Assembly (NCBI GenBank): GCA_041694815.1
Contig: JBGFSC010000047.1
Coordinates: forward strand, 23,362 to 87,361
From: Elusimicrobiota bacterium
GTDB lineage: Bacteria; Elusimicrobiota; Elusimicrobia; UBA1565; JACRDR01
DNA: 64,000 bases
Reading direction: 5' to 3'
In this document: positions 13,734-31,282 of the stretch, one piece after another
How the letters are laid out: every line of letters starts with the position of its first letter
How positions within the stretch are numbered: position 1 is the stretch's first letter
Notes under the pieces: generated by a model
The model's database searches: none
What the model was told of the DNA's origin: nothing
The model's input: only the letters and a program-made list of their open reading frames with translations
Position numbers and translations under genes: made by a program

Positions 13734-15098
13734 CTATTTAAGCGGCTGAAGCTCTTTTGAGGAGCGCGCTTCGGGCTTGGAGGCACGACCCAGCAGCCGC
13801 TCGGCGCAGCGCTTGCCGTCCAAAATGGTCTCTTCCATGAAGGAATACTTCCAGGCGCCGTATCTGCCGATGGATTCTATCTCGCGCTTGTTCAAGAAAT
13901 TAAAGATGGCGCGCACCGCCGGAGTGCGGTCGAAGTCGTAGACGACGTAGGCGCAGGGGATTGGGAGCCACAGAGCGGTCAGCAGCTTGTCGGAGGACTT
14001 GAGCAGCCCGCAGGATCGCAGCCCGGCCAATATCTGGTTCTCGAGGCGCTTGAGCTCGACCTTCTCGCCGGGCCTGCGCGAGACCTCGATGTACATCGAA
14101 CTGCTGCCCCGCGGGGCCACTTTTGGGGAGAAATTGCTGCAGAACCCGGCCCGGTAGAACGGGAAACGGTTTTCCGGGAAGTAAATCCAATGCTTATCCG
14201 ACATGCCGGGCCGGGCAACGCCGATATTCCAATTGTAAACGGAAACGTAGCGCAGCCGGCCCCGTGCACGACGAACGGCTTCGGGCAAAGGCGAAGCAAG
14301 GTCCAAAAAATGTGCCAACGGCAGGGTGTTGACCAGGCGCTCGTAACGGACCTCGCCGATGCCATCGATCTCGGCGACCCGCTCGGCCAGATGCACCCGC
14401 CGGACGGCGCAGCCGACCCGGACATGGCCCAGGCCGGAGGCCAGGGCGTCGGCGAGCGACTGGCTGCCCCCGCGGATCGGGTAGCGGAAGGTGGCGTTAT
14501 AGCCGAAGTATTTCTTTTGGTCGAACAACGCGCCGTAGAGCACCTCCTCGACCGACGGTTTGGGGACGAAGCGTCCCTGCCATTCCGTCGTCAGCCGGGA
14601 TAAGGGCGCGCGCCAGAGCTTCTCGTTATAGGGGAACATGAAATGCCGCGAGATCCCTTCCCCGAAGGTCCGTAAGCTCCATTCGCGGAAGGAAAGTCCG
14701 GGCACCGCGGGCTGCGGCCGGTGCACGGTTTTGAGAAATCCGACCACGCAGTCCTCGACCGTCTTGGGAGGCAACCCGCAGGTGTTGGCCTGGAAGGGAT
14801 AGCGCGTGAACACTCCTTTGGAATAGATCCAGGAATTGCGCCGGATCACCGAAAGGTTGCCGCGCAAGAGCCCGGTGATCAATTCTTTTCCGTAGGGGTC
14901 GTGCAGGTGCAGCAGGTGCCCCGTATGGTCGAAGGTGAAGCCGTCCTGCGTGACCGACCCGGCCAGACCGCCGACGCGGGCCTTCTTCTCCGCGATCAAC
15001 CAGGAAGGCCGCCGCCCTCCTCCGAGCCGCTCAAGATGGTAGGCCGTCGAGAGGCCGGCCAGGCCGCCGCCCAGGATCAATACGTCCGTGGCGACCAT
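13734..15098 (-). CDS. FAD-dependent oxidoreductase, UDP-galactopyranose-mutase (Glf)/amine-oxidase-like
   Basis: Rossmann LILGGGLAGLSTAYHL; Glf-like GHLLHLHDP and C-terminal GRYGAWKYSFMEETI. Confidence 0.55.
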   Translation of the reverse strand: MVATDVLILGGGLAGLSTAYHLERLGGGRRPSWLIAEKKARVGGLAGSVTQDGFTFDHTGHLLHLHDPYGKELITGLLRGNLSVIRRNSWIYSKGVFTRYPFQANTCGLPPKTVEDCVVGFLKTVHRPQPAVPGLSFREWSLRTFGEGISRHFMFPYNEKLWRAPLSRLTTEWQGRFVPKPSVEEVLYGALFDQKKYFGYNATFRYPIRGGSQSLADALASGLGHVRVGCAVRRVHLAERVAEIDGIGEVRYERLVNTLPLAHFLDLASPLPEAVRRARGRLRYVSVYNWNIGVARPGMSDKHWIYFPENRFPFYRAGFCSNFSPKVAPRGSSSMYIEVSRRPGEKVELKRLENQILAGLRSCGLLKSSDKLLTALWLPIPCAYVVYDFDRTPAVRAIFNFLNKREIESIGRYGAWKYSFMEETILDGKRCAERLLGRASKPEARSSKELQPLK

Positions 15099-15099
15099 G

Positions 15100-16140
15100 T
15101 CAGTGCATGCGCACGACGCCCATGCGCCGGCTCAGCAGCGCGATCTCGGCTATCAAGAAAGCGTAGATCCAAAGCGCCCACATGGAAGTGACGCGGGTGA
15201 CGATGAAGCCGCAGACCGACAGCAGGGCGGCCGCCACGGCCGCCAAGACCACGATCTGCTGGCGAGTGAAGCCCATCGCTTCCAAGCGTAGGGCGAAATG
15301 GTCCCGGGATCCCATGAAGGGCGACTGACCCTTGAGCATGCGCAGCACCATGACGAAGAACGTGTCGTACATCGGGACCATCAGTATGAAGAGCGGGGCG
15401 TACACGCCGAAGGGGTTGACCTTGGTGTAATCGGTGCCCAGCGAGATCGCGGCCAGGAGGAAGCCGAGCGGCATGCTGCCCGAATCGCCCATGAATATCT
15501 TGCGCTTTTCCGATAAGTTCCACGGGAGAAAGCCCAGGGCCGACCCGGCCACCGCCGCTGAGGCGAAATTGACGTAGATATGCTCGGAGGGCATGGCGAT
15601 GAGCAAAAATCCCAAGGCGGCGATCGCCGCCTGGCTGGAGCAAAGCCCGTCCATGATATCGATGATATTGAAGGCGTTGGTGATGCCGACTACCCAGAGT
15701 ACCGTCAAGGCGATCGCCAGGTAATCCGGTGTGATGAAGTGTATCCGGATCCCGTAGGACACGAGAACGATCGCGGCGAGCAATTGCCCCGCGAACTTGG
15801 TGCCCACGTGGAGACCCTCGGGCTTTTTCCAGTCGTCGATGAGGCCGAGCAGGAAGACGATCGCCGAGCCGATGACGAGCGCGCGCAGGCTGTAGAGGGT
15901 GCCCGTGGGAAAGGCGGTATAACGCCGCAACAGAAGAAGGCTCAAGGCGAAGCCGAGCCAGATGGCGACGCCGCCCATCATGGGTGTGGCGATCTTGTGC
16001 GTCTTGACGGAGCTCGAGGGGGCGTCCAGCCAGCCGAAGCGCAGGGCCGCCTGGCGCATCACGGGCGTGGCCAGCATCGACAAAAGCCCCGAGGCGGCGA
16101 TGGTCCCGATGTAGAGTTGAATCGTTCCCGTTTCTTTCAA
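15100..16140 (-). CDS. polyprenyl-phosphate N-acetylhexosamine-1-phosphate transferase (WecA/MraY family, GT4-type initiating enzyme)
   Basis: NAFNIIDIMDGL and MGDSGSMPLGF motifs; about 10 TM segments. Confidence 0.8.
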   Translation of the reverse strand: MKETGTIQLYIGTIAASGLLSMLATPVMRQAALRFGWLDAPSSSVKTHKIATPMMGGVAIWLGFALSLLLLRRYTAFPTGTLYSLRALVIGSAIVFLLGLIDDWKKPEGLHVGTKFAGQLLAAIVLVSYGIRIHFITPDYLAIALTVLWVVGITNAFNIIDIMDGLCSSQAAIAALGFLLIAMPSEHIYVNFASAAVAGSALGFLPWNLSEKRKIFMGDSGSMPLGFLLAAISLGTDYTKVNPFGVYAPLFILMVPMYDTFFVMVLRMLKGQSPFMGSRDHFALRLEAMGFTRQQIVVLAAVAAALLSVCGFIVTRVTSMWALWIYAFLIAEIALLSRRMGVVRMH

Positions 16141-18137
16141 TCCTTGATCGCCATTAGGGCGCAGGAATCGGACGCGTAAACGGGCTCCAGGAGCCCGGCG
16201 CGCTCAAGGCCCTCCCAATTCCTGATCCCCGCCGGGGAAAACGAGAAGATGCCGTAGCCAGAGAGGCGCCTCCCCTCCCGCGGGACGAGCAGCAGGTGGG
16301 TGAATTTTCCCTCGCTTTTGAGCAGCCCCGCGAGCTCCACGGGGCTCGATGAGCGGTCGGCCCATTCCACGAAGCGGTTGGGGGCCATGACGGTGGTGGC
16401 GACGTGATCCTGCTGGACGTAGTAACCCCGCTGCTCGCCCACGATGAGGATTCTATCATTTTTGCCCAAACGCTCCCTCGCCCGCAGCGCGCAAGGATAA
16501 TAGTCCAGGCGTCGCGAGAGGTACTCGTTGCGGCTCTCGGCGCCGGAGAGCAGCCGCCAGCTCGAGAGCACGGTGTGCACGTAGAAGAAAAAGCCCAGGT
16601 TGCAGAGGATAAACAAGGCGAGGGCCGCCGCCAGGAGGGTCTTGCCTCCGCGCTCAAAGGAGCGCCAGAGCCGGTGGAAGCCAGCCGCCGCCGGCAGGCT
16701 CAGCAGCGGCACCAGCACGGTCAAGAAGCGCAGCACCACGCCGGTCGAGAACCACACGGCGGCGTGGAAGGCGCAGTAGCCGAGCATGCGGCGCAGGCTG
16801 CGGTTGGCGAAGGCGGCCCATGCCGCCAGCGGCGTCAGCGCGAGGAGCAGCCCCCAGCCGAGATTGCCCAGCACATCGGCTCCACCGCCGAAACGCAGGT
16901 TTCCGGTGAAGGCCAGGAAGGGGAACGCGAGCAGGTCCGAGAAAAACTGGCCATGCCCGTGCCCGTAATCGGTCAGGGCCGAGAAATACCGCTTCGCGTT
17001 CTCGGGACCCCAACCGGTCCCACGATAAGGGAAATGCTGGTAGAGAAACGGAAAGAAGGGGTTGCCGAGGCTCAGCCAATTGCGGATGAGCCAGGGGCTG
17101 CCAACCACGGCGGCGCAAAGGCCGAAGCGCAGCGCCGGGCGCCAGGCGCGGCGGATCACAAGATATAGCCCAATGGCCGCTGGGCATATGCCGACGTAAT
17201 ACTTCGTCCCCACCCCGAGCCCGGCGAAAAGCGCCGAAAGCAGCAGCCAACCGTCGCGCGAACCCTCGATCTCCCTCCAGCGGCAAAAGCATAGGACGGA
17301 GGCCGTAACCCAGAGCATCGCCAGGGTCTCGACGTAGGTGATCGAAGACAGCAGCATTACCGCCGTGTGGGAGGCGGCGAGCACGCAGGCGAGCAAGGCG
17401 GCGTTGATCGGCATCTCGCGTTTGCCCATCTCGAACATCCACCATAAGGAAAGGGCGGTCGCCAGCCAGCTGAACATCTGCGCCAGGAGGTCGGAGCCGA
17501 GCATCAGGGCGAACATGAAGAGCATCTCGCCGTTCTGCGGGAAATGCCCGAAGAGCACCGGGGGTTGCGCCGTAAGCCCCCCATGGCGCAGGTAATAGGC
17601 CGGGAGCTCGAGATGGTAGACCAGCGAGTCGTACTGGTGCGGCGGCACCCAAGCCGTCCAAAAGGTCAGGCAGAGCAGGGCTGCCAAGAACGCCGTCCAC
17701 CCCGAGCGCCCTCGCAGCAGGCTGCGGTTGGCGGCCAAGGACAGCACGACGTCGCGCATCTCGGTGAAGCTCAATACCCAGAGTACGGAGAATAGGAGCA
17801 CGACGGCCACGGGCTTGAGCGCCCCGGTGGCGGCCAGCAGCAGCATGCCCTGGCTCAGTATGCCCAGGCCCAACGTGCAGCCGATGAGGGTCCTCTCGGA
17901 CTCGCTCATATGCGTCGCGACGTACATCTTCAGCGCCAGGCGCCCCATGCCGGTGCAGGTGAGCACGGTCAGCGCGAGCAGGACGGCGGCCGTCAGCCCC
18001 GCGGCGAGAGGCTGGGCGAAATGGCTCCAGCAGAGGTAGAGGGCCAGCCCCAGCAGCCCCAGCAGGTACGCCCACGCGGCCAGCGAGGGGCTGCCCCCCT
18101 CGCGTTCGACGCGCGCGCCTTCGCGGTGCTCAGCCAC
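16137..18137 (-). CDS. polytopic membrane protein, putative GT-C family glycosyltransferase (ArnT/PMT-like)
   Basis: 666 aa, >12 predicted TM helices, periplasmic-loop acidic/aromatic motif (YDSLVYHLE); ATGA-type overlap with neighbours. Confidence 0.4.
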
Positions 18138-18891
18138 CGTTCTTGGGGATGAACAGGGGGCTACGGATGAGCCCCATGCGATGGAGCCGGTACTGCAGCA
18201 TCACGCCCAGCGAGGAGAGCCCGTAGACCATGCTGCGCCGGAAATTGATCGAGGAGGCCTCGGGAAAATAGCGCGCGGCGACGGGGATGTCCCCGATGCG
18301 GAACTGCAGCGCCGCCGCCTGGTAGAGGAACTGCTGGTCGAAGACGAAATCGTCGGAATTTAGCTCCCAAGGGATGGTCTCGAGGACCTCGCGGGAATAG
18401 GCGCGCAAGCCGGAATGCCATTCTCCAAGGTTCTGCCCGGTCCAGGAATTCTCGAGCATCGTGAGCCCGCGGTTGGCCAGGTATTTCCACCACGGCATCC
18501 CGCCCATGAGCGCCTCGCGACGCGTGCGGATGCGGTTGCCCAGCACTACGTCGCAGACGTCGTTGGCGATGAGCCCCGTCATATGCGGTGTCAGGCGCGC
18601 GTCATATTGGTAGTCCGGATGGATCATCACGACAATGTCGGCGCCCCGGCGCAAGGCCTCCCGGTAGCAGGTCTTCTGGTTGCCGCCGTAGCCCTTGTTG
18701 CTCTCGTGCCGGATGGCCGTCAGCCCCAGGCGGCGCGCCAGCTCGAAAGTGCCATCCTTGGAGCAGTCGTCGACGAGGATGATCTCGGACACCGAGTCCT
18801 TGGGGATGTCGCGGACGGTCTTTTCGAGCGTCTGCTCCGCGTTGTAGGCGGGCATCACGACGATGGTGTTCACGAGTGCTGCGACCGACAT
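18130..18891 (-). CDS. GT2 glycosyltransferase (DPM1/ArnC-like polyprenyl-phosphate sugar synthase)
   Basis: [26 protein letters not shown] motifs. Start placed at MSVAALV (ATG 18891) rather than the ORF-track 18948. Confidence 0.7.
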
Positions 18892-19142
18892 ATAATGCCC
18901 GCTTTGGACGGGCGATTTTGAGGCGAGGCAAGGAGCGAGGAGCGCCACGTACCTGGAAGGTACGCAAGCGACGAGCGACGCAGCCGCAGCCCAAAAGCGA
19001 CCGAATACCGGCCTGAGCCCATCTTTGGCCGGCCGCGTCGTTGCGCCTCGCTCACAGGCCTACAGGCCTGCTCGCTCGGCGCGCCTAGCGGCCGTCTCAA
19101 AGCTAGGCTCCCAAAGCGAGCATTATATGTCGGTCGCAGCAC
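18876..19142. repeat. 32-bp inverted repeats (1 mismatch) flanking a 203-bp segment; invertible-promoter-like element or MITE
   Basis: left arm 18876-18907 (GTGCTGCGACCGACATATAATGCCCGCTTTGG) and right arm 19111-19142 are reverse complements except one C/T. Each arm carries a TATAAT box and an ATGTCGGTCGCAGC start segment. Confidence 0.75.
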
Positions 19143-19185: not shown

Positions 19186-20088
19186 ATGCCCCGAGACCTC
19201 GAATTCGTGCCCCCTGATAATTTGCTCGAGCATTTCCGCTCCTTCGGCAGGGGATTGGCCGTCACCCGCGGGGTCTACGAGCTGCGCAACCGGCACCAGG
19301 CCCAGGACCTGGCCTGGAACCACATGGACCAGATGCATCGCCCGCTGGTGCACAACACCTATCTGGAGGCCTCGCGCATCGCCCGCGGCAGGAATTTCGC
19401 CCTGTCATTGACGAAAATGACCCCCTTTTCTTTGCTCGTGCCGGTAATGGACGTGCAATTGGGCCCCGACTTATTCTACCAGTCCTTCACGCTGTTTAGC
19501 CTCGTGCACGTGCTCTGCCTCAACCGGATGGTTCCCGAGCCGGATGGGCGCTGCCTGCAGCGCACCGAGTGGTACATCACCTCGCATTGGCTGTTTAAGT
19601 TCCTGCACCCCCTCGTCCATCGCCGCTTCAGGAGGCTCGTCGAGTTCCAGAACGCCCAGGACATCCCGATCCGCGACCGGCGCCAGCAGCTGCGCGAGCG
19701 CGGCTATCGCTTCGGCAGCGACGACCCGGATTATCTGAGCTCCAACAGCCTGGAGCTGGCCGTGCGGCCGCCGCGGCTGGAGGGGACGCACCGCATCGAC
19801 GTGAGCGCGGTCGGCGCGGCGCTGGAGCAGAAAATGGCGGGGCCGATCGAGCTCCTGATCCGGCGCTCGGGCGGGACCGTCGAGGTCTGGCCCGGGGTCT
19901 GCCCGCATGAGGGAGGGCCGCTGCTCTGCGGCAAGCTGGAGGCCGGCCGGATCGAATGCCCTTGGCATGGATTGAATTTTTCCGGGGTTTCGCTTACCCC
20001 CTCCAAGCCCGACGGCCGGCTCGGCGAGCTGGCACTGACGCTCGAAGGCGAGTCGCTGCGCGTGCAGGCGGCATCATCAGCCGGGTGA
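19186..20088 (+). CDS. Rieske [2Fe-2S] domain protein with uncharacterised ~230-aa N-terminal domain
   Basis: C-terminal CPHEGGPLLCGKLEAGRIECPWHG (CxH-x16-CxxH); in-frame TAG at 19165 fixes the start at 19186; N-terminal domain contains an H-x4-H (NHMDQMH) patch. Confidence 0.6.
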   Translation: MPRDLEFVPPDNLLEHFRSFGRGLAVTRGVYELRNRHQAQDLAWNHMDQMHRPLVHNTYLEASRIARGRNFALSLTKMTPFSLLVPVMDVQLGPDLFYQSFTLFSLVHVLCLNRMVPEPDGRCLQRTEWYITSHWLFKFLHPLVHRRFRRLVEFQNAQDIPIRDRRQQLRERGYRFGSDDPDYLSSNSLELAVRPPRLEGTHRIDVSAVGAALEQKMAGPIELLIRRSGGTVEVWPGVCPHEGGPLLCGKLEAGRIECPWHGLNFSGVSLTPSKPDGRLGELALTLEGESLRVQAASSAG

Positions 20089-20121: not shown

Positions 20122-21012
20122 GTGAGCGCGCTGGAAATTAGCGCCATCGTCCCGGCCTACAATGAGCAGGGCGCTGTCGGCCCGGTCGTCTCCGGCCTCT
20201 CGGAGCTGTTGCGCAAGCATGCCGCGCGCTTCGAGATCATCGCCGTCGACGACGGCTCCACCGACTCCACCGCCGAGGCCGCCGAGAAGGCCGGGGCCGT
20301 CGTCCTCCGCCATCCCGTCAACCGCGGCTACGGCCGATCGCTTCTGACCGGCATCGAAAAAGCCCGCTATGAGTGGATACTCATCATCGACGGGGACGGC
20401 AGCTACCCCCCCGAGGAGGCCGAGCGCCTGCTCCCCAAGGCCCCGGCCTGCGACCTTATCATCGGCAAGCGGGAAGGAAAGTTCTTTTGGGGGAACCCCC
20501 TTCAGGCCTTCATGCGCTGGTGCTACCTCGCGATGGCGGGCTTCGTCACGGGCGAGAGCATCCCGGACGCCAATTCGGGGATGCGGCTCTTTCGAAAAAG
20601 CTCCTTGGACCGTTCCATGCCCTTCGTCTGCCTCGGCTACTCCTTTACCACCACCATGACGCTCTCCTTCATCGCCGCCGGACGCTTCGTCGCCTATGTT
20701 CCCATCCGCTTCGTCGAGCGCCGCGGCCACTCGAAGGTCAAGCCCCCGCGCGACATCCTACGCACGCTGCAGATCATGACGCAGATGCTGCTCTACTACA
20801 ACCCACTGAAGCTGGCCGTCAGCCTGTCGGCCGGCTCGGCGGTGGCTGCGCTCGCCATCTTCCTCTTCCTCAGCCCGCGCTGGGGCATCCATTCCGCCTT
20901 CTTTGCCGCCTGCGTGCCGGCCTCCCTCGCCGTGCTGATCTTTTTGGCCGGCTGCCTGATGGATGCCGTGCGCATGCATTTTCAGGCGCGCAACGGCGGC
21001 TACAAGATTTGA
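20122..21012 (+). CDS. GT2 glycosyltransferase, DPM1/ArnC-like with C-terminal TM anchor
   Basis: IVPAYNEQ, IIAVDDGSTDST, DGDGSYPP motifs; two C-terminal TM helices typical of ArnC/GtrB; GTG start. Confidence 0.75.
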   Translation: MSALEISAIVPAYNEQGAVGPVVSGLSELLRKHAARFEIIAVDDGSTDSTAEAAEKAGAVVLRHPVNRGYGRSLLTGIEKARYEWILIIDGDGSYPPEEAERLLPKAPACDLIIGKREGKFFWGNPLQAFMRWCYLAMAGFVTGESIPDANSGMRLFRKSSLDRSMPFVCLGYSFTTTMTLSFIAAGRFVAYVPIRFVERRGHSKVKPPRDILRTLQIMTQMLLYYNPLKLAVSLSAGSAVAALAIFLFLSPRWGIHSAFFAACVPASLAVLIFLAGCLMDAVRMHFQARNGGYKI

Positions 21013-22784
21013 TGCACTGGCCGTTCTACTTACTTGCCTTGGCGATAGCGGCCTTCTCCCTTTTCCTTTCGCCGGAAACGCTGGCCCGACAGTTCAGCCA
21101 GGACTCAAGCCTCGCCGGCTATGTCGTCTTCCGGCTGGGTGTCGCCCGCGCGCTCGGGGGACTGCTCGCCGTCTTACTGGCCGCTTGGGGATCGCTCGAC
21201 GCGCAGCGTCGGGTTCTCTGGCGGGCCCGCTGGGCGAGCTGGAGCCGGCACCCCGCGCTGGCCGCGCCGATACTCGCGGCCGCCGCGGCGCTGCTTTGGA
21301 CCGAAAACCATATTTTCGAGTCGGAAAGCTGCGCGGAGGGATTTCTGACCGTCGGGGCGTGGCGCATGGCCGCCGGAGATTTTCCCTACCGCGACTTCTT
21401 CGTGTTCATCCCGCCGGCCGGGCTCGCCTATCTCGGGGCCGCCTTCAAGCTGTTCGGGCCGTCGCTGGAGGTGGGCCGCCTCTTCGTCAACCTGATCCCC
21501 AAGCTCCTGATCGTGATCGTGCTCTGGCGGCTGGCCAAGCCGTATTTCTCGCCCTTGACGGCCCTGCTCCTGGGCTGCTTCAGCCTGATGTACACCAGCG
21601 GCAACGGCGACAACGCCCAGATCTACAACGGAGCCCTCTCGATGCTCCCCGCCTTCGCGACGCTGCCCCTGCTCGACCGGTTCGCCCGAAGCGGGAACGC
21701 GGCGCTCCTGCGCTGGGCCGGCGCGGCGGCGGCGGCAGCCGCGCTCGTGCGACAGGATTTCGGGGCCTTGGCCCTCGGCGCGAACCTCTCCTTCCTGCTG
21801 TGGCTTCCCGACGGCCGCAAGATCCGGCCACTGGCGAATTACCTGCTCCCGTGGGCCGGGGTCCTGGCCGCGGCCGGCCTGATCCTGCTCCTCACGGTTC
21901 CCTTCGACCGGCTCTACGAATGCTTCGTCCGCGCGCCGTACGAGTACATGCATTACAGCGGGATCGGGCGCCCCGCCTCCTTCCACGGGATTTATCTCAT
22001 CCCTTTCGCCGGCGTGGATCTCAAGGCCATCTCCTGGAAGGCGCTCGCCGCCAACGCCTGGATCTACCAGTCGAAGCTGCTGCTCTGCTACATCGCGATA
22101 CTAGGCGGATCGTGGTTTTTGCTCCGCCGGAAGGACGAGGCGCGGCGGCCCTCGGTGGCCCTGCTGGCGCTTTGGTGCATCTTCTTCATGGGCATCGTCT
22201 ATAAGCAGAGCTCCAATATCTACATCGGGGTGGCCCCCGCCGCCGTCATTCTGGCGGCGCTGCTCATCCGCCGCCCCTTGCCGGCCCTGCTTTTGGCCGC
22301 CCACGGCCTGACCCTTCTCTTCTTCCGGCCCTTCTCGGCGCCGGAGGGCTCGGTCTGGGCCGAGCTGGCCGTGGGTCGCTTCCGCTTCCCCGACCCGCTG
22401 GAGGGCCGAGAGATGATACGGCTCATCACACATGCCCAATCCATCGTACAGCCCTCCGAGCCCGTCTACATCCACAACAAGGAGCGCATGTGCAGCGACA
22501 CGCTGCTCTACTTCCTCGTTTCCCGCCGCCCGGCCACCCGCTACCACGAGTTCCTTAACGCCTACGCCCGCAAGCCCGAGATCCGCTCGCAGATCGAGGC
22601 CGAGCTCGAGAGCCGGCGTGCGCCGGCGGTCATCGAGCGGCTGCTCCCGCCGGACCTGTCGGAGACGCCGGGGGTAAGCATCGCGCAGGCGAAACAGCGC
22701 GACTCCTTGGACCAATACATCCTAGACCATTACCGCAGCGTCGGACGCTATGGCTCCTATATCCTATGGCAAAGACGGCGCTGA
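21012..22784 (+). CDS. polytopic membrane protein, putative GT-C glycosyltransferase
   Basis: 590 aa from ATG 21012 (TGATG overlap with the upstream stop). The ORF-track 20373 start is an out-of-context extension. Many TM helices. Confidence 0.4.
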   Translation: MHWPFYLLALAIAAFSLFLSPETLARQFSQDSSLAGYVVFRLGVARALGGLLAVLLAAWGSLDAQRRVLWRARWASWSRHPALAAPILAAAAALLWTENHIFESESCAEGFLTVGAWRMAAGDFPYRDFFVFIPPAGLAYLGAAFKLFGPSLEVGRLFVNLIPKLLIVIVLWRLAKPYFSPLTALLLGCFSLMYTSGNGDNAQIYNGALSMLPAFATLPLLDRFARSGNAALLRWAGAAAAAAALVRQDFGALALGANLSFLLWLPDGRKIRPLANYLLPWAGVLAAAGLILLLTVPFDRLYECFVRAPYEYMHYSGIGRPASFHGIYLIPFAGVDLKAISWKALAANAWIYQSKLLLCYIAILGGSWFLLRRKDEARRPSVALLALWCIFFMGIVYKQSSNIYIGVAPAAVILAALLIRRPLPALLLAAHGLTLLFFRPFSAPEGSVWAELAVGRFRFPDPLEGREMIRLITHAQSIVQPSEPVYIHNKERMCSDTLLYFLVSRRPATRYHEFLNAYARKPEIRSQIEAELESRRAPAVIERLLPPDLSETPGVSIAQAKQRDSLDQYILDHYRSVGRYGSYILWQRRR

Positions 22785-24556: not shown

Positions 24557-25222
24557 ATGAAAACGACATTGCTCATGCCGATTTTAAACGAGATCCACGG
24601 CATGAGGGCGGTGATGCCGCGCGTGCGCCGGGAATGGGTCGACGAGATGCTCGTCATCGACGGCGGCTCCACCGACGGCAGCCTCGAATACGCCCAAGAG
24701 CTCGGCTGCCGCGTGCTGCGCCAGAAGACCCCGGGCATCACCTACGCCTACCAGGAGGGTGTGGCCGCGGCGTCGGGGGAGGTGATCGTGGCCTTCTCCC
24801 CGGACGGAAACTCGGTTCCCGAGCGTATCCCGGAGCTGCTCGCCAAGATGCGCGAGGGCTACGACATGGTGATCGTCTCGCGCTACTTGGACGGCGCCAA
24901 GAGCGAGGACGATGACTGTGTCACCGCCATTGGCAACCGGATATTCACGGCCGCCATCAATTGGACCTTCGGAGGCCGCTACACCGATTGCTTGGTGATG
25001 TTCCGCGCCTTCCGCAAGGACGCGGTGGGCGATTTCCCCTCCGGCATTCCCCGGGCGGGACTAGAGCCATTGCTGGCGATCCGCTGCGCTAAGGCCAAGA
25101 GGCGGGTCGCCGAAATACCAGGCGACGAACCCAAGCGCATCGGCGGGCAGCGGAAGATGAGCCCCGTGCTCAACGGCATCGACATCATCCGCCTCATCGC
25201 GCGGGAGTATTTTTCGAGATGA
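24557..25222 (+). CDS. GT2 glycosyltransferase (soluble, DPM/GtrB-like catalytic domain)
   Basis: LMPILNE, LVIDGGSTDGS, SPDGNSVPE motifs. Confidence 0.6.
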   Translation: MKTTLLMPILNEIHGMRAVMPRVRREWVDEMLVIDGGSTDGSLEYAQELGCRVLRQKTPGITYAYQEGVAAASGEVIVAFSPDGNSVPERIPELLAKMREGYDMVIVSRYLDGAKSEDDDCVTAIGNRIFTAAINWTFGGRYTDCLVMFRAFRKDAVGDFPSGIPRAGLEPLLAIRCAKAKRRVAEIPGDEPKRIGGQRKMSPVLNGIDIIRLIAREYFSR

Positions 25223-26187
25223 GCTCTAAACCCTGGCTGCTCATCACGGGCGCCGCCGGCTTCATCGGCAGGAATCTCCTGGAGCGCTTCGCCAAGAACC
25301 CAGCCTACTCGGTCGCGGCCGTCTGGCATCAGTCGCCGCGGCCCCGGGAGCTCATCGGCGACCCCCGAATACGCTGGATACGCGCCGACCTGACGCAGCC
25401 GGCGCAGGTACGCGATGCCGTCTCGGGCGCGGACATCGTGCTGCACGCCGCCGCCACTACCTCGGGCTCCAAGGATATCGTCGAGCGGCCCAGCCGGCAC
25501 GTCACCGACAACGCCGTGATGAACTCCCTGTTGTTTCGGGCTTGCCACGAGCAGAAGGTCAAGCACGCGGTGTTCTTTAGCTGCAGCGTCATGTACTCCC
25601 CGCAGGACAAGCCGGTACGCGAGAGCGATTTCCGCTACGAGATCACCGCGCCTTATTTCGGCGTCGGCTGGACGAAGGTGTACTCGGAGAAGATGTGCGA
25701 GTTCTATTCCAGGCTCGGCACGACGCGCTTTACGGCGATCCGGCATTCGAATATCTACGGCCCTCACGATAAATACGACTTGGAGAAGTCCCATGTCTTC
25801 GGCGCCACGCTCGCCAAGGTGATGTCGGCCGAGCGCGAAATCGTCGTGTGGGGAGAAGGGACGGAGGAGCGCGACCTGCTGCATGTCGACGACCTGGCCG
25901 ACTTCGTTGAGAAACTCGTCACCCTCCAGAAGGAGCCCTTCGAGCTCATCAATGTGGGTTCGGGCCGCTCTGTCGCCGTTCGCGACCTAGCCGCCAAGAT
26001 CATCGAGCTCTCGGGACGCAAGCTCGAGATGCGCTTCGACCGCTCCAAGCCGAGCATTCCCTTCAAGCTGGCCTTGGATTCGGGGCGCGCCAAGAAGGTC
26101 TACGGCTGGTCACCGTCGGTGTCCCTAGAGGAGGGCATTCGCCGCAGCCTCCAGTGGTACCGGGAGCATGTGGGGGCCGCCGCATGA
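25219..26187 (+). CDS. GDP-fucose-synthase-like SDR epimerase/reductase (second copy)
   Basis: ITGAAGFIG; NIYGPHDKYDLEKSHVFGATLAKV; VWGEGTEERDLLHVDDLADF. Confidence 0.6.
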   Translation: MSSKPWLLITGAAGFIGRNLLERFAKNPAYSVAAVWHQSPRPRELIGDPRIRWIRADLTQPAQVRDAVSGADIVLHAAATTSGSKDIVERPSRHVTDNAVMNSLLFRACHEQKVKHAVFFSCSVMYSPQDKPVRESDFRYEITAPYFGVGWTKVYSEKMCEFYSRLGTTRFTAIRHSNIYGPHDKYDLEKSHVFGATLAKVMSAEREIVVWGEGTEERDLLHVDDLADFVEKLVTLQKEPFELINVGSGRSVAVRDLAAKIIELSGRKLEMRFDRSKPSIPFKLALDSGRAKKVYGWSPSVSLEEGIRRSLQWYREHVGAAA

Positions 26188-27161
26188 GCGCCAAGGCCGA
26201 CCGCGAGCTGCTCGGCAAGCTCTACCGGCTCATGCTCGGCATACGGCTCGCCGAGGAAAAGATCGTCGAGCTCTACCCCACCGACAAGATCCAGAGCCCG
26301 ATACACCTGTCCATCGGCCAGGAGGCGGTCTCGGCAGGCCTCGCCTTGGCGATGGGCGAGGCGGACAGGCTCTACGGGACCTACCGGGGCCACGGCCCCT
26401 ATATCGCGCTCGGGGGCGATCTCAAGAAGCTGTTCGCGGAGCTCTACGGCAAGGACACGGGCTGCGCCCGCGGCAAGGGAGGCTCCATGCACCTGGTAGC
26501 TCCCGAGGCTGGGCTCATGGGCTGCTCGGCCATCGTCGCGAGCACCATCCCCATCGCCACCGGCCACGCCCTGGCCTCCCAGATGCGCGGCCGGCGCTAC
26601 GCGGTGCTCTCCCTCTTCGGCGACGGCGGCGTCGACGAAGGCGTATTCTTCGAGAGCGTCAACTTCGCCGTGCTCAAGAACCTCCCCATTGTCTACGTGC
26701 TCGAGAACAACCGCTACGCGATCCATTCGACGGTTCCGGACCGGCACAAGCAGACCGAGCTTTTCCGCATCGCCGAGGGGCTGGGGCTTCGGGGAGAGCG
26801 CTTCGACGGCAACGACGCCTCGAATGTCTACGCCACGGCCAAGCGGGCGATCGACGCGGTGCGCGCGGGCTCGGTCCCGGCGCTGCTCGAGTACACGACC
26901 TACCGCTGGAGGGAGCATGTGGGCTCGCAGGAGGACTATGCGGCCGCCTACCGCGCCCCCGGCGAACGCGAGGAGGCGCTGGCCCACGACCCGCTCCAGA
27001 TAACCCGGAAGGCCTTGATCGAGGCGGGCGCCAGCCCGGTAGAGCTCGACGGGTGGCGCTCGCAGGTTCTCCAAGAAGTCGAGGAGGCCGTGCGCTTCGC
27101 CGAGCAAAGCCCCAGCCCCGCGCCCGGCCGACTTCTGGCCGACGTGTACGCCTCCCGATGA
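26184..27161 (+). CDS. ThDP-dependent dehydrogenase E1 component, alpha subunit (pyruvate/acetoin dehydrogenase type)
   Basis: GDGGVDEGVFFESVNFA ThDP-binding motif; YRGHG, GKGGSMHL. Confidence 0.8.
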   Translation: MSAKADRELLGKLYRLMLGIRLAEEKIVELYPTDKIQSPIHLSIGQEAVSAGLALAMGEADRLYGTYRGHGPYIALGGDLKKLFAELYGKDTGCARGKGGSMHLVAPEAGLMGCSAIVASTIPIATGHALASQMRGRRYAVLSLFGDGGVDEGVFFESVNFAVLKNLPIVYVLENNRYAIHSTVPDRHKQTELFRIAEGLGLRGERFDGNDASNVYATAKRAIDAVRAGSVPALLEYTTYRWREHVGSQEDYAAAYRAPGEREEALAHDPLQITRKALIEAGASPVELDGWRSQVLQEVEEAVRFAEQSPSPAPGRLLADVYASR

Positions 27162-28189
27162 AAACCCTCAACTACGGCCAGGCCATCCACCGCGCGCTTG
27201 AGTTCGCCATGGAGAAGGACCCTTCCGTCTTCGTCATGGGCATCGGCGTCGACGATCACAAGGCCGTCTTCGGCACCACCAAGGGCCTGCTCGAGAAATT
27301 CGGCAGGGAACGCGTATTCGACACGCCGATCTCCGAGGGGGCCATGACCGGCGTCGCCGTCGGGGCGGCCCTAGGCGGCATGCGCCCGGTGCATATCCAC
27401 ATCCGCTCGGATTTCCTATACCTGGCCATGGACCAATTGCTCAATATGGCCGCCAAGTGGCGCTCGATGTTCGGAGGTGCCGCGAGCGTGCCGATCGTCG
27501 TGCGCGCCGTCATCGGGCGGAGCTGGGGCCAGGGGGCGCAGCACTCGCAGAGCCTGCAGTCGCTCATCGCGCATGTGCCAGGGATCAAGGTCGGCATGCC
27601 CACGACGCCGGCCGACGCACAACAGATGCTGCTGGCGGCCATCGCCGACCCCAACCCCGTCGTGCTCTTCGAGCATCGACTGCTCTACGACATCGTCGGC
27701 GAATTGCCCGAGCCGGATTGGGCGGTGGAATTTAAGCGCGCCGTCGTCCGCCGCCCGGGCAAGGACCTCACCATCGTCGCCAACTCCTACATGGCCGTGG
27801 AGGCTCTCAAGGCCGCGGAGTTCCTCCAGGAGCACGGCATCGAGGCCGAAATCGTCGACCCGGTCACCGTGGTGCCGCTGGATGAGGCCGTTATCCTCGG
27901 CTCGATCCGCAAGACGGGGCGGCTCATCGTCATCGACACTAGCTGGACCTTCTGTGGCGTGAGCGCGGAGATTGCCGCCCTAGCCGCCGAAAAAGCCTTC
28001 TCGAGCTTGAAGCAGCCGGTTTTAAGGCTCGGCATGCAGCCAACCCCTTGCCCGGTGAGCAAGCCGCTCGAGAACCTCTTCTACCCCAACGCCGGCACCA
28101 TCGCCGACGCCGCCTTCAAGATGATGGAGCGCCGCTCGCCCGAGCTGCGCGCCCCGGTTCTGACCCACGCCTTCAAGGGGCCGTTCTGA
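27158..28189 (+). CDS. ThDP-dependent dehydrogenase E1 component, beta subunit
   Basis: ATG 27158 overlaps the alpha stop (ATGA); transketolase-like pyrimidine-binding and C-terminal domains. The ORF-track 26168 start is a frame extension through the alpha gene. Confidence 0.8.
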   Translation: MKTLNYGQAIHRALEFAMEKDPSVFVMGIGVDDHKAVFGTTKGLLEKFGRERVFDTPISEGAMTGVAVGAALGGMRPVHIHIRSDFLYLAMDQLLNMAAKWRSMFGGAASVPIVVRAVIGRSWGQGAQHSQSLQSLIAHVPGIKVGMPTTPADAQQMLLAAIADPNPVVLFEHRLLYDIVGELPEPDWAVEFKRAVVRRPGKDLTIVANSYMAVEALKAAEFLQEHGIEAEIVDPVTVVPLDEAVILGSIRKTGRLIVIDTSWTFCGVSAEIAALAAEKAFSSLKQPVLRLGMQPTPCPVSKPLENLFYPNAGTIADAAFKMMERRSPELRAPVLTHAFKGPF

Positions 28190-29355
28190 TGATCCGCTAT
28201 TACCTCGCCGAGGACACGATCGACCGCAAGGACGTCGACCGACTCGTCGACTGGCTCAAGACATACCCGAGGCTCACCCAGGGGCCGCTGGTCCGGCAAT
28301 TCGAGGAGAAATGGAGCCGCTGGCTTGGGGCCCCGCGCTCGGTGTTCTGCAACTCCGGGTCCTCGGCCAACCTGCTGATGTACTATGCCCTGCTGCTCTC
28401 GGGCAGGCTCAAGAACCGCGAGGTGGTCGTGCCCTCCGTCGGCTGGGGCACCTCCATCGCACCGGCGATACAGTTCGGTTTCGAGCCGCTGATCTGCGAG
28501 GCGGACAAGGACACCTTCGGCCTCGACTTGAACCATCTCGAGGCGCTGCTTAAAAAGCACAAGCCCTCCTCCGTCCTGCTGGTTCAGGTGTTGGGCGTCC
28601 CGCACAAGATGAAGGAGCTTATGGCCCTGAAGAAGAAATACAAGTTCTTCCTGATGGAGGACGCCTGTGCCGCGATCGGGGCCGCTTATCAAGGCCGCCA
28701 TGTCGGCACCTTCGGCGACATGGCGAGCTTCTCATTCTATTTCGGGCATCAGATGTCGACGATCGAAGGCGGCATGGTCTCGACCTCGGACAAGAAATTC
28801 GCCGACCTGCTGCGCTTGACTCGCGCCCACGGCTGGAGCAAGGACTTAGACGCCGAGGCTCATCAGGCCTTGGTCAAAAAGCATCGCATCGATGATTTCC
28901 ATACCCCATTCGTCTTCTACGAGCCTGGCTTCAATCTCCGATCGACCGATCTTAATGCCTTCCTGGGCCTGGGCCAGGTCGACAAGCTCGCCTGGATCAT
29001 CGAGACCAGGCAGCGCAACCATGCGATTTACTCCCGGTTGCTGGGCGCGCGCTTCTACACGCAGAAGCCGGAACCGGGGTCTACGGTGTGCAGCATTTCT
29101 TTCGGCATGCTGGCCGACGACGCCAAGCAGCGCCGAGCCATTGTGAGCGCCCTGGTGGAAAATGGGGTGGAGACGCGAATATTTTCCGCGGGCAACCTGG
29201 GCCTGCACCCCTTCTGGGTCAAGCGATTCGGCAAGGCGAGTTTTCCCATGGCCGATCGCATCCATCACACGGGACTATTTTTGCCCAATAATCCGTCGCT
29301 TTCTACGGATACGGTCGAAAGCATCGCCAAGATTGTCCTGGAGGCGGCCCGATGA
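28189..29355 (+). CDS. DegT-fold PMP-dependent nucleotide-sugar 3-dehydratase (ColD/E1-like; His replaces Schiff-base Lys)
   Basis: DegT/DnrJ/EryC1 fold; the PLP-lysine position reads SFSFYFGHQMSTIEGG (His, no Lys) as in ColD/AscC; ATG 28189 overlaps the E1-beta stop. Confidence 0.6.
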   Translation: MIRYYLAEDTIDRKDVDRLVDWLKTYPRLTQGPLVRQFEEKWSRWLGAPRSVFCNSGSSANLLMYYALLLSGRLKNREVVVPSVGWGTSIAPAIQFGFEPLICEADKDTFGLDLNHLEALLKKHKPSSVLLVQVLGVPHKMKELMALKKKYKFFLMEDACAAIGAAYQGRHVGTFGDMASFSFYFGHQMSTIEGGMVSTSDKKFADLLRLTRAHGWSKDLDAEAHQALVKKHRIDDFHTPFVFYEPGFNLRSTDLNAFLGLGQVDKLAWIIETRQRNHAIYSRLLGARFYTQKPEPGSTVCSISFGMLADDAKQRRAIVSALVENGVETRIFSAGNLGLHPFWVKRFGKASFPMADRIHHTGLFLPNNPSLSTDTVESIAKIVLEAAR

Positions 29356-30335
29356 CCCCCACGATCCGGCGGGTGTTGATCACGGGCATCACCGGCTCCG
29401 GCGGCAGTTACCTCGCCGATCACATACTCGAGGAGCATCCAAAGGTGGAGCTGCACGGCATTACGCGCTGGCATACCTCCTCGAGCCATCGCGATCTCTT
29501 CGGCGGCCGGGCGATACTGCATGAATGCGATCTTACCGATCTGCTCTCCGTGCTCAACGCCGTGGAGAAATCCAAGCCGGACGCCATCTTCCATCTGGCG
29601 GCGCACGCCAACGTGCGCGCCTCCTTCGACACCCCGGGCGCGGTTCTCACGAACAACATACTCGGGACCAGCAATCTCTTCGAGGCCGTGCGCCGGTGCA
29701 AGCTGAACCCGCTGATCCAGCTCTGCAGCACCTCCGAGGTCTACGGGCAGGTGGATCCCACGGACCTGCCCATTAAAGAAGACGCGCCTCTGCGACCCAT
29801 TAGCCCCTATGCGGTTTCGAAGACCGCCCAGGACCTTTTGGGCTGGGGCTATTTCAAGAGCTACGGCATGCGCATCATCCGCACGCGGATGTTCACCTAT
29901 TTCAATCCCCGGCGCACCGATCTGTTCGCCACCGCCTTCGCGCGGCAGATCGCCTGGATCGAGCAGGGGCTAGCCAAGGAATTGCGCCACGGGAACCTGA
30001 ACTCGGTGAGGACCTTCATCGACGTACGCGACGCGGTGCGCGCCTATTGGGAAGCGACCCTGCATTGCGTCCCCGGCGAGGCCTACAATATCGGCGGCCG
30101 CACGACGATGACGGTGGGCGACTGCCTCGAACGCCTCAAGGCCCTAGCCAAGGTGAAGATCCCGACTCGGCAGGACCCGGCGCTGATGCGCCCGGCCGAC
30201 GTGACCCTGCAGATCCCCTGCGTGGACAAATTCGTCAAGGCCACCGGCTGGCAGCCCCGATACGATTTTGACGACAGCCTGCGGCATCTCTTGGAGCACT
30301 GGCGCGCCGAGGCGAGGAGGGAGAAAGCGGCATGA
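29352..30335 (+). CDS. GDP-mannose 4,6-dehydratase-like enzyme (Gmd/DmhA family)
   Basis: VLITGITGSGGSYLADHILE matches the Gmd N-terminus ITGITGQDGSYLAE; YAVSKTAQD catalytic YxxxK. Confidence 0.7.
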   Translation: MTPTIRRVLITGITGSGGSYLADHILEEHPKVELHGITRWHTSSSHRDLFGGRAILHECDLTDLLSVLNAVEKSKPDAIFHLAAHANVRASFDTPGAVLTNNILGTSNLFEAVRRCKLNPLIQLCSTSEVYGQVDPTDLPIKEDAPLRPISPYAVSKTAQDLLGWGYFKSYGMRIIRTRMFTYFNPRRTDLFATAFARQIAWIEQGLAKELRHGNLNSVRTFIDVRDAVRAYWEATLHCVPGEAYNIGGRTTMTVGDCLERLKALAKVKIPTRQDPALMRPADVTLQIPCVDKFVKATGWQPRYDFDDSLRHLLEHWRAEARREKAA

Positions 30336-31273: not shown

Positions 31274-31282
31274 ACGGCGGCC

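Follow-up and report, generated by a model that had tools for sequence, protein, structure and literature searches.

The open reading frame at positions 19186-20088 of the window (the whole 64,000-nucleotide stretch of Elusimicrobiota DNA analysed here) encodes what is most likely a domain-swapped, or circularly permuted, Rieske non-heme iron oxygenase, because a C-terminal Rieske domain is found together with the oxygenase iron signature in the N-terminal domain. That the product is a Rieske-type oxygenase can be stated with good confidence, and a permuted Rieske oxygenase is the best reading, preferred over a Rieske domain joined to a new domain. Judging from conserved gene neighbourhoods, the enzyme likely uses O2 for a tailoring oxidation within a pathway for lipid-linked glycans, and it is probable that the oxygenase acts on an intermediate of that pathway.

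The ORF lies on the plus strand, starts with ATG, encodes 300 amino acids without internal stops, and is confirmed to be a real and intact gene. It consists of the following parts:

19186..20088, plus strand: whole gene, most likely a domain-swapped Rieske non-heme iron oxygenase in the order catalytic domain, linker, Rieske domain (ORF, full-length homologues, AF2 model)
19186..19698, plus strand: predicted helix-grip (SRPBCC) catalytic domain, aa 1-171 (AF2 model)
19306..19353, plus strand: candidate mononuclear-iron motif, aa 41-56, DLAWNHMDQMHRPLVH, with D41, N45, D48, H51 and H56 (invariance in 50 sequences)
19654..19695, plus strand: long-helix segment, aa 157-170, AQDIPIRDRRQQLR, with the invariant residues D159 (predicted third Fe ligand) and R163 (conservation; helix from the AF2 model)
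19699..19785, plus strand: ordered and conserved linker, aa 172-200, with G173, F176, D179, P181, N187 and P196 (conservation, pLDDT)
19786..20070, plus strand: Rieske [2Fe-2S] domain, aa 201-295 (PF00355, PDB sequence matches, hhalign)

The window has a GC content of approximately 65% and holds many long spurious ORFs, such as the antisense ORF 19471..19968, a setting that would favour reading the gene as an artefact, namely a pseudogene, two genes fused by a frameshift, or an ORF that arose by chance in GC-rich sequence. This reading is effectively refuted. Among 5.8 billion proteins, 44 full-length homologues of 291-324 amino acids were found with an architecture identical to that of the window protein, and they align to it from end to end without a frameshift. 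A profile search with the N-terminal domain retrieved 225 family members among 1.84 billion representatives, and the structure of the 300-residue protein was predicted with high confidence across its entire length (AF2 model, pLDDT of 93.7, pTM of 0.87). The mis-fused pseudogene or internal frameshift that the preliminary description had allowed for is therefore not supported by the intact homologues and the wider set of relatives. No Rfam families were found within the 64-kb window.

Analysis of the C-terminal region bore out the earlier assignment of a C-terminal Rieske domain with the pattern CPH-x16-CPWH. Pfam PF00355 matches residues 222-266 with an E value of 2.5e-9 (37.4 bits against a cutoff of 20.3), and the ligand motif C239-P-H241-x16-C258-P-W-H261 occupies nt 19900-19968, beginning with the TGC codon of Cys239 (19900-19902). 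The motif has the CXH-x15-17-CXXH form of Rieske oxygenases within a Rieske fold, and the residues C239, H241, G243, C258, and H261 do not vary across 50 sequences (16-48% identity). Searches of the PDB sequences with phmmer and hmmsearch returned the oxygenase Rieske domains of SxtT (1.7e-8), GxtA, KshA, and DdmC as the best matches, with these alpha3-type oxygenases scoring above the Rieske ferredoxins, and hhalign aligned the domain to VanA-like oxygenases with a probability of 96.5% (E value of 9.7e-10). Among the other genome matches to the CPHEG pattern, most are small Rieske proteins of the NirD type or fusions to nitrite reductase, unrelated to the N-terminal domain, and two (L050 and L071) are distant full-length members of the family.

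In the AF2 model, the N-terminal domain begins with a helix, continues with a beta-sheet over residues 24-134, and ends in a long helix formed by residues 135-171. It is predicted to adopt the helix-grip (SRPBCC / RHO_alpha_C) fold that Rieske oxygenases have in their catalytic domain. A Foldseek search of the PDB returned GxtA/SxtT as the best matches, with an E value of 3e-6. The linker that follows (residues 172-200) has pLDDT values of 88-93. The preliminary description regarded this region as an unknown domain of 230 residues. It indeed has no Pfam or NCBIfam match, as a scan of the window protein and 50 relatives found the Rieske domain alone, but according to the AF2 model and Foldseek its fold is a familiar one, and a known non-catalytic domain, the other outcome considered there, is not what emerged. 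The figure of 230 residues corresponds to the stretch before the CPH motif and not to one domain, since the fold extends to about residue 171 and the Rieske domain begins near residue 201.

At the level of sequence, the homology of the N-terminal domain to oxygenase catalytic domains is not demonstrable beyond the iron motif of approximately 14 residues. The catalytic-domain models of Pfam and NCBIfam (Ring_hydroxyl_A, VanA_C, PaO, KshA_C, and similar) gave no significant match to the window protein, and VanA_C gave one match, with an E value of 0.19, among 50 family members. Against the PDB sequences, the significance of the phmmer and hmmsearch matches was confined to the Rieske domain, and the iron motif was aligned to SxtT and DdmC insignificantly. 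Comparison of the N-terminal domain with VanA-like catalytic domains (44-sequence alignment) by hhalign yielded a probability of approximately 1% and an E value of 0.047, a weak negative in view of the narrow profile (Neff ~2.5), and profile-profile comparison with E. coli YeaW alone aligned just the iron motif, with a probability of approximately 1% or less. The Pfam family DUF5914 (PF19299) was rejected as an identity for the domain: 3 of the 50 members match it, the best with an E value of 0.0017, which does not reach the cutoff, and the one match with a known position, in P0156, covers residues 276-308 in the C-terminal Rieske part.

Comparison of 50 homologues (16-48% identity) revealed that the only invariant residues of the N-terminal domain are D41, N45, D48, H51, H56, D159, and R163, with P161, R166, L169, and R170 being near-invariant on the long helix. 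Among these residues are N45-x2-D48-x2-H51-x4-H56 and, on the long helix, D159, which together make up the oxygenase iron signature and have the form of a putative 2-His-1-carboxylate site (D/E-x2-H-x4-H plus a distal Asp). H51, H56, and D159 are the predicted Fe ligands and D48 is the predicted bridging carboxylate. HMMER and hhalign aligned this motif with the corresponding Fe motifs in SxtT, DdmC, YeaW, and VanA-like oxygenases. In the local alignments, N45/D48/H51/H56 fall on N/D/H/H of DdmC, on the motif of SxtT, and on N/E/H/H of YeaW, and the motif is the second-best hhalign alignment against the VanA-like oxygenases. The spacing from the second histidine to the acidic residue on the helix is 103 here, compared with 117 to the invariant E-D in the canonical VanA-like enzymes. 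An iron-binding His-x4-His patch had been proposed within NHMDQMH (aa 45-51, nt 19318-19338). The N-terminal domain does hold a candidate iron site, but the conserved pair is H51/H56 (HRPLVH), one off from the proposed H46/H51, and H46 varies in the wider family. R163, R166, and R170, which are invariant or near-invariant, could be compatible with an anionic substrate that carries phosphate.

Canonical Rieske oxygenases carry the Rieske domain at the N-terminus and the catalytic domain at the C-terminus (PMC9615114). The opposite order of the window protein, pointed out in the preliminary description, holds in the AF2 model and among the relatives: of the 146 family members that are 280 residues or longer, 140 have the Fe motif ahead of the Rieske motif, and none has the canonical order. 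A tandem double-unit protein (P0046) also exists. The family is rare, small, and uncharacterised. Its nearest homologues come from Planctomycetales and Verrucomicrobia MAGs (44-48% identity), its loci span Planctomycetota, Verrucomicrobiota, Elusimicrobiota, Bdellovibrionota, Alphaproteobacteria, and Gammaproteobacteria, and all the members found are metagenome- or MAG-derived. The family models miss the N-terminal domain and the source labels of the homologues are just "hypothetical" or "ferredoxin subunit", and the enzymes are therefore invisible to annotation. Literature searches on C-terminal-Rieske or permuted oxygenases, including those with polyprenyl phosphate, nucleotide sugar/O-antigen, or SRPBCC, found no description, in agreement with the earlier statement that the function is undescribed for this architecture, and no experimental study of any family member was found. 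A multi-phylum family with the opposite domain order and a minimal catalytic domain of approximately 170 residues would be a natural experiment on the architecture that an oxygenase requires, as well as a compact engineering scaffold.

The oxygenase gene is flanked by GT2 genes on both sides, with 33 nt between its stop codon and the start codon of the downstream GT2. The neighbouring genes in the window are as follows:

13734-15098, minus strand: flavin amine-oxidase-like protein in the minus-strand array (Pfam/NCBIfam similarity)
15100-16140, minus strand: GT4/WecA-like protein in the same array (Pfam/NCBIfam similarity)
16137-18137, minus strand: GT-C in the same array (Pfam/NCBIfam similarity)
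18130..18948, minus strand: GT2, divergently transcribed, heading this array (PF00535, E 2.1e-19)
20122..21012, plus strand: GT2 with two C-terminal TM segments, directly downstream of the oxygenase gene (PF00535, E 9.2e-27; TM count)
21009-22784, plus strand: PMT_2-type GT-C membrane transferase (Pfam)
24557..25222, plus strand: small soluble GT2 of 221 aa, in the same plus-strand array as the oxygenase (PF00535)
25219..26187, plus strand: SDR epimerase/dehydratase-family gene (~47-57% identical copies in other loci)
~26202-27152, plus strand: ThDP-dependent E1 alpha-like member of a pair (tblastn, Pfam)
27161-28189, plus strand: E1 beta/transketolase-like member of the pair (tblastn, Pfam)

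The placement between two Dpm1-like GT2 genes noted in the preliminary description was thus confirmed, and these genes are closest to polyprenyl/dolichyl-phosphate sugar synthases, under the curated cutoffs. The small GT2 (24557..25222) has its best NCBIfam similarities to AglJ, dolichyl-phosphate hexose transferase, ArnC, and PpgS, all under cutoff, and the GT2 genes of the window stay far under the curated family cutoffs despite their similarity to AglJ, dolichyl-P hexose transferase, PpgS, and ArnC. Two large membrane proteins of the locus match PMT_2. The E1 pair (26202..28189) contains Transket_pyr and Transketolase_C according to Pfam, and tblastn aligned it to the corresponding pair of another locus (L005) with 42% and 49% identity; such a pair recurs at 11 loci of the family. 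SDRs, DegT, a GHMP kinase, and an NTP transferase are located further downstream in the window.

Neighbour clusters were counted over 49 family loci, and orthologues of the small GT2 were surveyed by tblastn over 42 genome loci. These orthologues are the most consistent neighbours of the oxygenase family, with one located within 6 kb in 24 of the 42 loci. The co-occurrence with GT2 and GT-C genes recurs elsewhere: 27 of the 49 loci contain the GT2 cluster, which is directly adjacent to the oxygenase in 14, and GT-C-like membrane proteins form two clusters of 9 loci each. The remaining clusters comprise SDR proteins (26/49), SAM methyltransferases (14/49, adjacent in 10), B12-radical-SAM genes (14/49), a flippase-like LPG_synthase_TM protein (12/49), and an E1/transketolase-like protein (11/49). 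One natural fusion of the oxygenase with a GT2 domain was found (P0077), and a distant subfamily member adjoins a methyltransferase and a GT87 GT-C. The neighbourhoods vary between loci and point to no particular substrate. No reductase or ferredoxin cluster was found among the conserved neighbours in the 49 loci, which is not decisive, because many Rieske oxygenases use unlinked reductase or ferredoxin partners. The redox tailoring step in a glycan island suggested earlier fits these neighbourhoods, which are conserved across phyla. The association with GT2, methyltransferase, and GT-C genes, together with the one covalent fusion of oxygenase and GT2, suggests that bacteria include an oxidative tailoring step when they synthesise surface glycans; a step of this kind was not found described in the searchable literature.

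The account we consider reasonably probable is that of a functional Rieske oxygenase of reversed order (helix-grip domain first, Rieske domain last) that tailors a lipid-linked-glycan intermediate. We infer its metal binding, electron path, reaction type, and substrate as follows. By analogy with known Rieske oxygenases, the Rieske cluster (C239, H241, C258, and H261) would receive electrons one at a time from a ferredoxin or reductase of the cell that is encoded elsewhere, and the electrons would pass via the conserved carboxylate D48 to the mononuclear Fe(II) at H51, H56, and D159. The Fe(II) would then activate O2 and oxidise the substrate in the helix-grip pocket, with C-H hydroxylation as the most likely reaction. 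The substrate is probably a modified nucleotide sugar, or a polyprenyl-phosphate sugar produced by the small GT2 that accompanies the oxygenase, and a GT-C enzyme would subsequently move the sugar onto a cell-surface glycan.

It is unlikely that the substrate of the oxygenase is unrelated to the glycan genes, being a hydrophobic small molecule or lipid (polyprenol carrier, quinone, or hopanoid-like), or that the reaction is a non-hydroxylating one such as O/N-demethylation or desaturation. Such activities are represented among the closest solved Rieske relatives, which include the demethylases DdmC and NdmA and the sterol hydroxylase KshA, and the tblastn survey found no recognisable glycan partner in the loci L010, L013, L014, L017, and L026. 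However, the covalent GT2 fusion in P0077 and the GT2 or methyltransferase genes directly adjacent to the oxygenase in many loci of different phyla speak against an unrelated substrate, as may, from their conservation, the three arginines that could suit an anionic substrate. The methyltransferase neighbour also speaks against demethylation.

It is very unlikely that the N-terminal domain is a non-catalytic, START-like binder of a ligand or lipid carrier, with the Rieske domain solely supplying a separate enzyme with electrons or sensing redox state on its behalf, so that the protein would not itself be an oxygenase. This arrangement would account for the lack of a significant sequence match to the oxygenase catalytic-domain models, and similar Rieske domains with the CPHEG pattern do occur in small NirD-like ferredoxins and nitrite-reductase fusions. 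However, the invariant residues of the N-terminal domain comprise D41, R163, and the oxygenase iron signature only, and a pure ligand-binding domain would have no reason to fix these residues. The Rieske domain is moreover closer to oxygenase Rieske domains than to Rieske ferredoxins.

Comparison with known systems places the product nearest to the alpha3-type (phthalate-family) oxygenases SxtT/GxtA, DdmC, KshA, NdmA, VanA, and CntA/YeaW, which provide the best sequence matches. They share the Rieske motif CXH-x16-CXXH, the helix-grip catalytic fold (predicted here), the N-x2-D-x2-H-x4-H motif with the long-helix Asp, an overall size of approximately 300-350 residues, and the lack of a nearby beta subunit gene. 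In contrast to these enzymes, the family has the reversed domain order, with no member in the canonical order, a smaller catalytic domain (~171 versus ~210 residues) that matches no catalytic-domain model such as PF19112 or PF00848, no dedicated reductase gene nearby, and a setting of glycan biosynthesis instead of catabolism or secondary metabolism. Canonical Rieske oxygenases assemble head to tail as alpha3 or alpha3beta3, with the Rieske cluster within approximately 12 Å of the iron of the neighbouring subunit, and their electrons are understood to pass from one subunit to the next. A bolder proposal, which we regard as quite unlikely, is that the permutation represents a new structural class, in which the C-terminal Rieske domain would pack against the iron site within the same polypeptide, electron transfer would be intramolecular, and the head-to-tail trimer would be unneeded, combined with an undescribed O2-dependent hydroxylation of a branched sugar, polyprenyl-phosphate-linked or nucleotide-activated. 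In many loci the hydroxylated sugar would next be O-methylated, and a GT-C would then transfer it to the cell surface.

The chlorophyllide a oxygenase of Micromonas pusilla, a Rieske oxygenase split over two polypeptides, is comparable in that its Rieske and mononuclear-iron domains are separable and rearrangeable in nature (PMC9615114), whereas the domains are fused in reverse order here, and the substrate and lineage are unrelated. START/SRPBCC polyketide aromatase-cyclases and lipid-transfer domains are also among the closest known systems. The Rieske-domain monooxygenases CMP-Neu5Ac hydroxylase (CMAH) and mycobacterial NamH act on nucleotide sugars, with an N-terminal Rieske domain and another catalytic fold, and provide a precedent for the Rieske-dependent hydroxylation of an activated sugar that alters a surface glycan. 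To our knowledge, no Rieske oxygenase is known in three-component polyprenyl-phosphate-sugar glycosylation systems. Those systems, represented by ArnC/ArnD/ArnEF/ArnT, GtrA/B/C, and PpgS/Rv3779, consist of a GT2 synthase, a flippase, and a GT-C, and they allow modification of the lipid-linked sugar ahead of its transfer. The loci of the present family resemble them in combining a small GT2, flippase-like membrane proteins, and a GT-C of the PMT_2, YfhO, or GT87 type.

The oxygenase gene (19186..20088, + strand) is an uninterrupted ORF of 300 aa with an ATG start codon. The C-terminal CPH-x16-CPWH Rieske domain recognized in the preliminary description was confirmed by Pfam (Rieske [2Fe-2S], aa 222-266, E 2.5e-9, 37.4 bits) and by the ligand motif C239-P-H241, 16 residues, C258-P-W-H261; the NCBIfam scan of the protein gave nothing. 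The best PDB sequence matches of the Rieske part were the Rieske domains of SxtT (1.7e-8), GxtA, KshA, and DdmC, with lower scores for the Rieske ferredoxins T4moC and CarAc, and hhalign gave 96.5% against the VanA-like oxygenases. By these comparisons, the Rieske domain is oxygenase-like. Other CPHEG(G/A)PL Rieske proteins were seen at Acidobacteria loci (L051-L087, mostly Terracidiphilus), where they are small (~100-145 aa) and NirD-like, and at Planctomycetota loci (L062, L069, L075, and L077), where they are large (~730-1000 aa); read by eye, those of L062, L069, and L075 resemble nitrite/sulfite reductases with an internal Rieske domain and an apparent C-terminal FNR-like reductase domain.

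Among 5.8 billion proteins, 45 homologues were found, one identical and 44 at 34-49% identity, all of 291-324 aa, aligning end to end and carrying a C-terminal Rieske domain. The N-terminal domain (N-domain) profile matched only 225 proteins (E <= 1e-3) in 1.84 billion cluster representatives, nearly all of ~290-330 aa with the N-domain at the N-terminus. D-x2-H-x4-H precedes the Rieske motif in 140 of the 146 retrieved family proteins of at least 280 aa, and the Rieske-first order occurs in none of them. A frameshifted pseudogene had been considered in the preliminary description; the full-length homologues and the fixed domain order exclude a pseudogene as well as a fusion created in assembly, and with the 225 relatives and the confident AF2 model also refuting an artefact, the probability of such an origin is negligible. 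The scan of species-representative genomes found ~44 loci with family members (42 close and two distant, L050 and L071) in Planctomycetota, Verrucomicrobiota, Elusimicrobiota, Bdellovibrionota, Alphaproteobacteria (Reyranella, Rhodospirillales, Stellaceae, and Rickettsiales), and Gammaproteobacteria, with all records except L021 labelled MAG. Members of this rare family are spread over several phyla, and nearly all known ones come from metagenome-assembled genomes. An antisense ORF (19471-19968, - strand, 165 aa) lies inside the oxygenase gene, and similar ORFs form a "conserved" cluster in 17 loci; we attribute them to conservation of the sense strand in GC-rich DNA and do not regard the antisense ORF as a gene.

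Rieske oxygenases carry the signature N-x2-D-x2-H-x4-H and, on the long helix, a further Asp; the Fe is held by two His and one Asp, while the first Asp forms the bridge to the partner subunit's Rieske cluster. In the close family, D41, W44, N45, M47, D48, H51, R52, H56, D159, R163, and R166 are among the N-domain residues that never vary. In a wide alignment of 50 sequences, with a distant subfamily added (16-48% identity to the window protein), this set shrinks to D41, N45, D48, H51, H56, D159, and R163, and C239, H241, G243, C258, and H261 are invariant in the Rieske part. N45/D48/H51/H56 together with D159 constitute a predicted Rieske-oxygenase iron signature. E/Q-D159 lies 103 residues past H56 in the family, and the VanA-like set has an invariant E-D 117 residues past the second His. 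The motif was aligned by HMMER to SxtT 158-188 (NSIDVSHFPFIH) and DdmC 144-167 (DNLMDLGHAQYVH), and by hhalign to YeaW DNYLECYHCGPAH and to DVAHFAWIH of VanA-like oxygenases; each alignment is insignificant alone, and the four local alignments agree with the putative iron site. An iron-binding His-x4-His had been proposed within NHMDQMH (aa 45-51); the N-domain does carry a candidate site, but the proposed pair H46/H51 is shifted by one His, since H51 and H56 belong to the signature and the H46 position is occupied by Tyr, Asn, Gln, or other residues in the wider family.

Structure prediction of the N-terminal domain, a check proposed in the preliminary description, returned a confident AF2 model of the window protein (pLDDT 93.7, pTM 0.87; 45-sequence alignment as input), with GxtA and SxtT as the top-ranked Foldseek matches (E 3e-6).

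Elements of the AF2 model
aa 24-134, beta-sheet wrapped round the long helix
aa 135-171, long helix
aa 172-200, ordered linker
aa 201-295, Rieske beta-domain

The sheet and the long helix form a predicted helix-grip fold, the one that Rieske-oxygenase catalytic domains adopt. Structural comparison placed such domains a little behind the leading matches, with scores of 13.5 for SxtT, 12.6 for DdmC, 11.7 for NdmA and KshA, 11.5 for guaiacol demethylase, and 10.3 for CntA. Non-catalytic START domains match the N-domain fold equally well in structural comparison. The Pfam scan of 50 family members gave no catalytic-domain matches except one VanA_C at E 0.19, and hhalign of the N-domain against the VanA-like catalytic profile, which is narrow (44 sequences), gave a probability of ~1%; outside the iron motif, homology to canonical catalytic domains has no demonstrable sequence support in Pfam or hhalign. 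The N-domain might accordingly be read as a START-like binding domain joined to a Rieske electron carrier, but the iron signature is conserved exactly, and we consider this reading improbable.

For the neighbourhoods, every ORF up to 7 kb from the oxygenase gene was taken from 49 loci and clustered, ignoring prior annotation.

Recurrent neighbours of the oxygenase family
Small GT2, 27/49 loci, directly adjacent 14 times
SDR epimerase/dehydratase, 26/49 loci
B12-binding radical SAM protein, 14/49 loci
SAM methyltransferase of ~220 aa, 14/49 loci, adjacent 10 times, usually just upstream on the same strand
LPG_synthase_TM-like membrane protein, 12/49 loci
E1 beta/transketolase-like protein, 11/49 loci
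NTP transferase, 11/49 loci
GT-C-like membrane proteins of ~620-650 aa, 9 + 9 of 49 loci, two separate clusters

Co-occurrence with GT2 and GT-C genes in other genomes, a check proposed in the preliminary description, was observed, and the annotated contexts of family-encoding contigs agree with this picture. Some loci hold heptose-type nucleotide-sugar genes (SIS, GHMP kinase, HAD hydrolase, and NTP transferase). The gene of the distant-subfamily member P0120 directly follows a methyltransferase and a GT87 GT-C. No conserved reductase or ferredoxin was found within 7 kb at the 49 loci.

Within the window, the gene does lie between two GT2 genes, as previously described.

Genes near the oxygenase gene
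18130..18948, - strand, flanking GT2
20122..21012, + strand, flanking GT2, downstream
24557..25222, + strand, orthologue of the linked small GT2, 46% identical to the copy at locus L002
~26202-27152, + strand, E1 alpha-like gene (tblastn; frame of ORF 26154..27161)
27161-28186, + strand, E1 beta/transketolase-like gene (tblastn)

The oxygenase gene heads a long + strand array of GT2, PMT_2-type GT-C, two SDRs, the small GT2, the linked SDR, an E1 alpha/beta-like ThDP pair, DegT aminotransferase, GMD-like SDR, another SDR, GHMP kinase, NTP transferase, and a GT4-methyltransferase fusion. The 673-aa ORF 26168..28189 (+) is split by tblastn into the two E1 genes and is probably not a single gene. 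At 11 loci, a ThDP-dependent E1 pair within a glycan cluster stands beside the family; this suggests that a branched-chain sugar (two-carbon branch) is made. The genes at 28048-34886 (+), from DegT through the GDP-mannose-4,6-dehydratase-like SDR to the fusion, together resemble a pathway leading to a modified deoxy-amino hexose or heptose. A flavin amine-oxidase/PRK07208-like oxidoreductase (13734-15098, - strand) is the last gene of the divergent GT2/GT-C/GT4 array; a tblastn survey of 42 other loci showed no copy of it in the vicinity of the oxygenase, which makes a role as the dedicated reductase of this enzyme unlikely.

The divergent region that separates the oxygenase gene from the - strand GT2 holds a 32-nt inverted repeat (arms 18876-18907 and 19111-19142, 97% complementary, 203 nt apart), of which the window has no further copy. 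TATAAT is present in both arms, a sigma-70-like match lies at 18869-18896 (+), and the predicted folding of the 321-nt region is much stronger than that of shuffled sequences (z = -6.7). Two readings of the repeat are possible: paired divergent promoters or operators, or an insert of ~267 bp resembling a MITE. Since the left arm is contained in the 5' end of this GT2's longest ORF, the true start of the gene is probably further in, e.g., at the Met of MSVAALVNT.

In the proposed and most likely mechanism, an unlinked cellular donor would supply electrons to the Rieske cluster, D48 would relay them to Fe(II) at H51/H56/D159, and activated O2 would hydroxylate a substrate C-H bond in the helix-grip pocket. 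The fusion of one family member to a GT2 domain and the GT2 adjacency suggest that the substrate is the nucleotide sugar used by the GT2 or the polyprenyl-phosphate sugar that it makes. The frequent upstream methyltransferase is compatible with hydroxylation followed by O-methylation, and the conserved R163, R166, and R170 might, speculatively, suit a phosphate-bearing substrate. A Rieske oxygenase acting on a lipid or small molecule, or catalyzing a non-hydroxylating reaction, has a small but appreciable likelihood.

In the window protein, the predicted catalytic domain comes first and the Rieske domain second, and both are complete; such a swap amounts to a circular permutation made where the two domains meet.

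Unusual architectures in the family
P0046, 631 aa, tandem double unit (Cat-Rieske-Cat-Rieske)
P0122, 408 aa, two N-domains, no Rieske domain
P0077, 618 aa, permuted oxygenase covalently fused to a C-terminal GT2 domain

Permutation via duplication and truncation would be expected to pass through an intermediate like P0046. P0077 is preceded by a methyltransferase and followed by an 871-aa protein, and L091 4532-6388 is listed with these architectures. Canonical Rieske oxygenases are described as having the Rieske domain N-terminal and the catalytic domain C-terminal, and the Micromonas chlorophyllide a oxygenase (CAO) as split into two chains (PMC9615114). Our literature search found no paper on reversed domain order in Rieske oxygenases. 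More speculative possibilities are that the permutation allows electron transfer inside one chain, or that the reaction is an oxidative tailoring, of a new kind, that acts on lipid-linked sugars. The predicted chemistry and both folds are common to the window protein and known Rieske oxygenases, whereas it differs from every described member that we found in its domain order, its minimal and highly divergent catalytic domain, an N-domain without any family model, and its glycan-locus setting.
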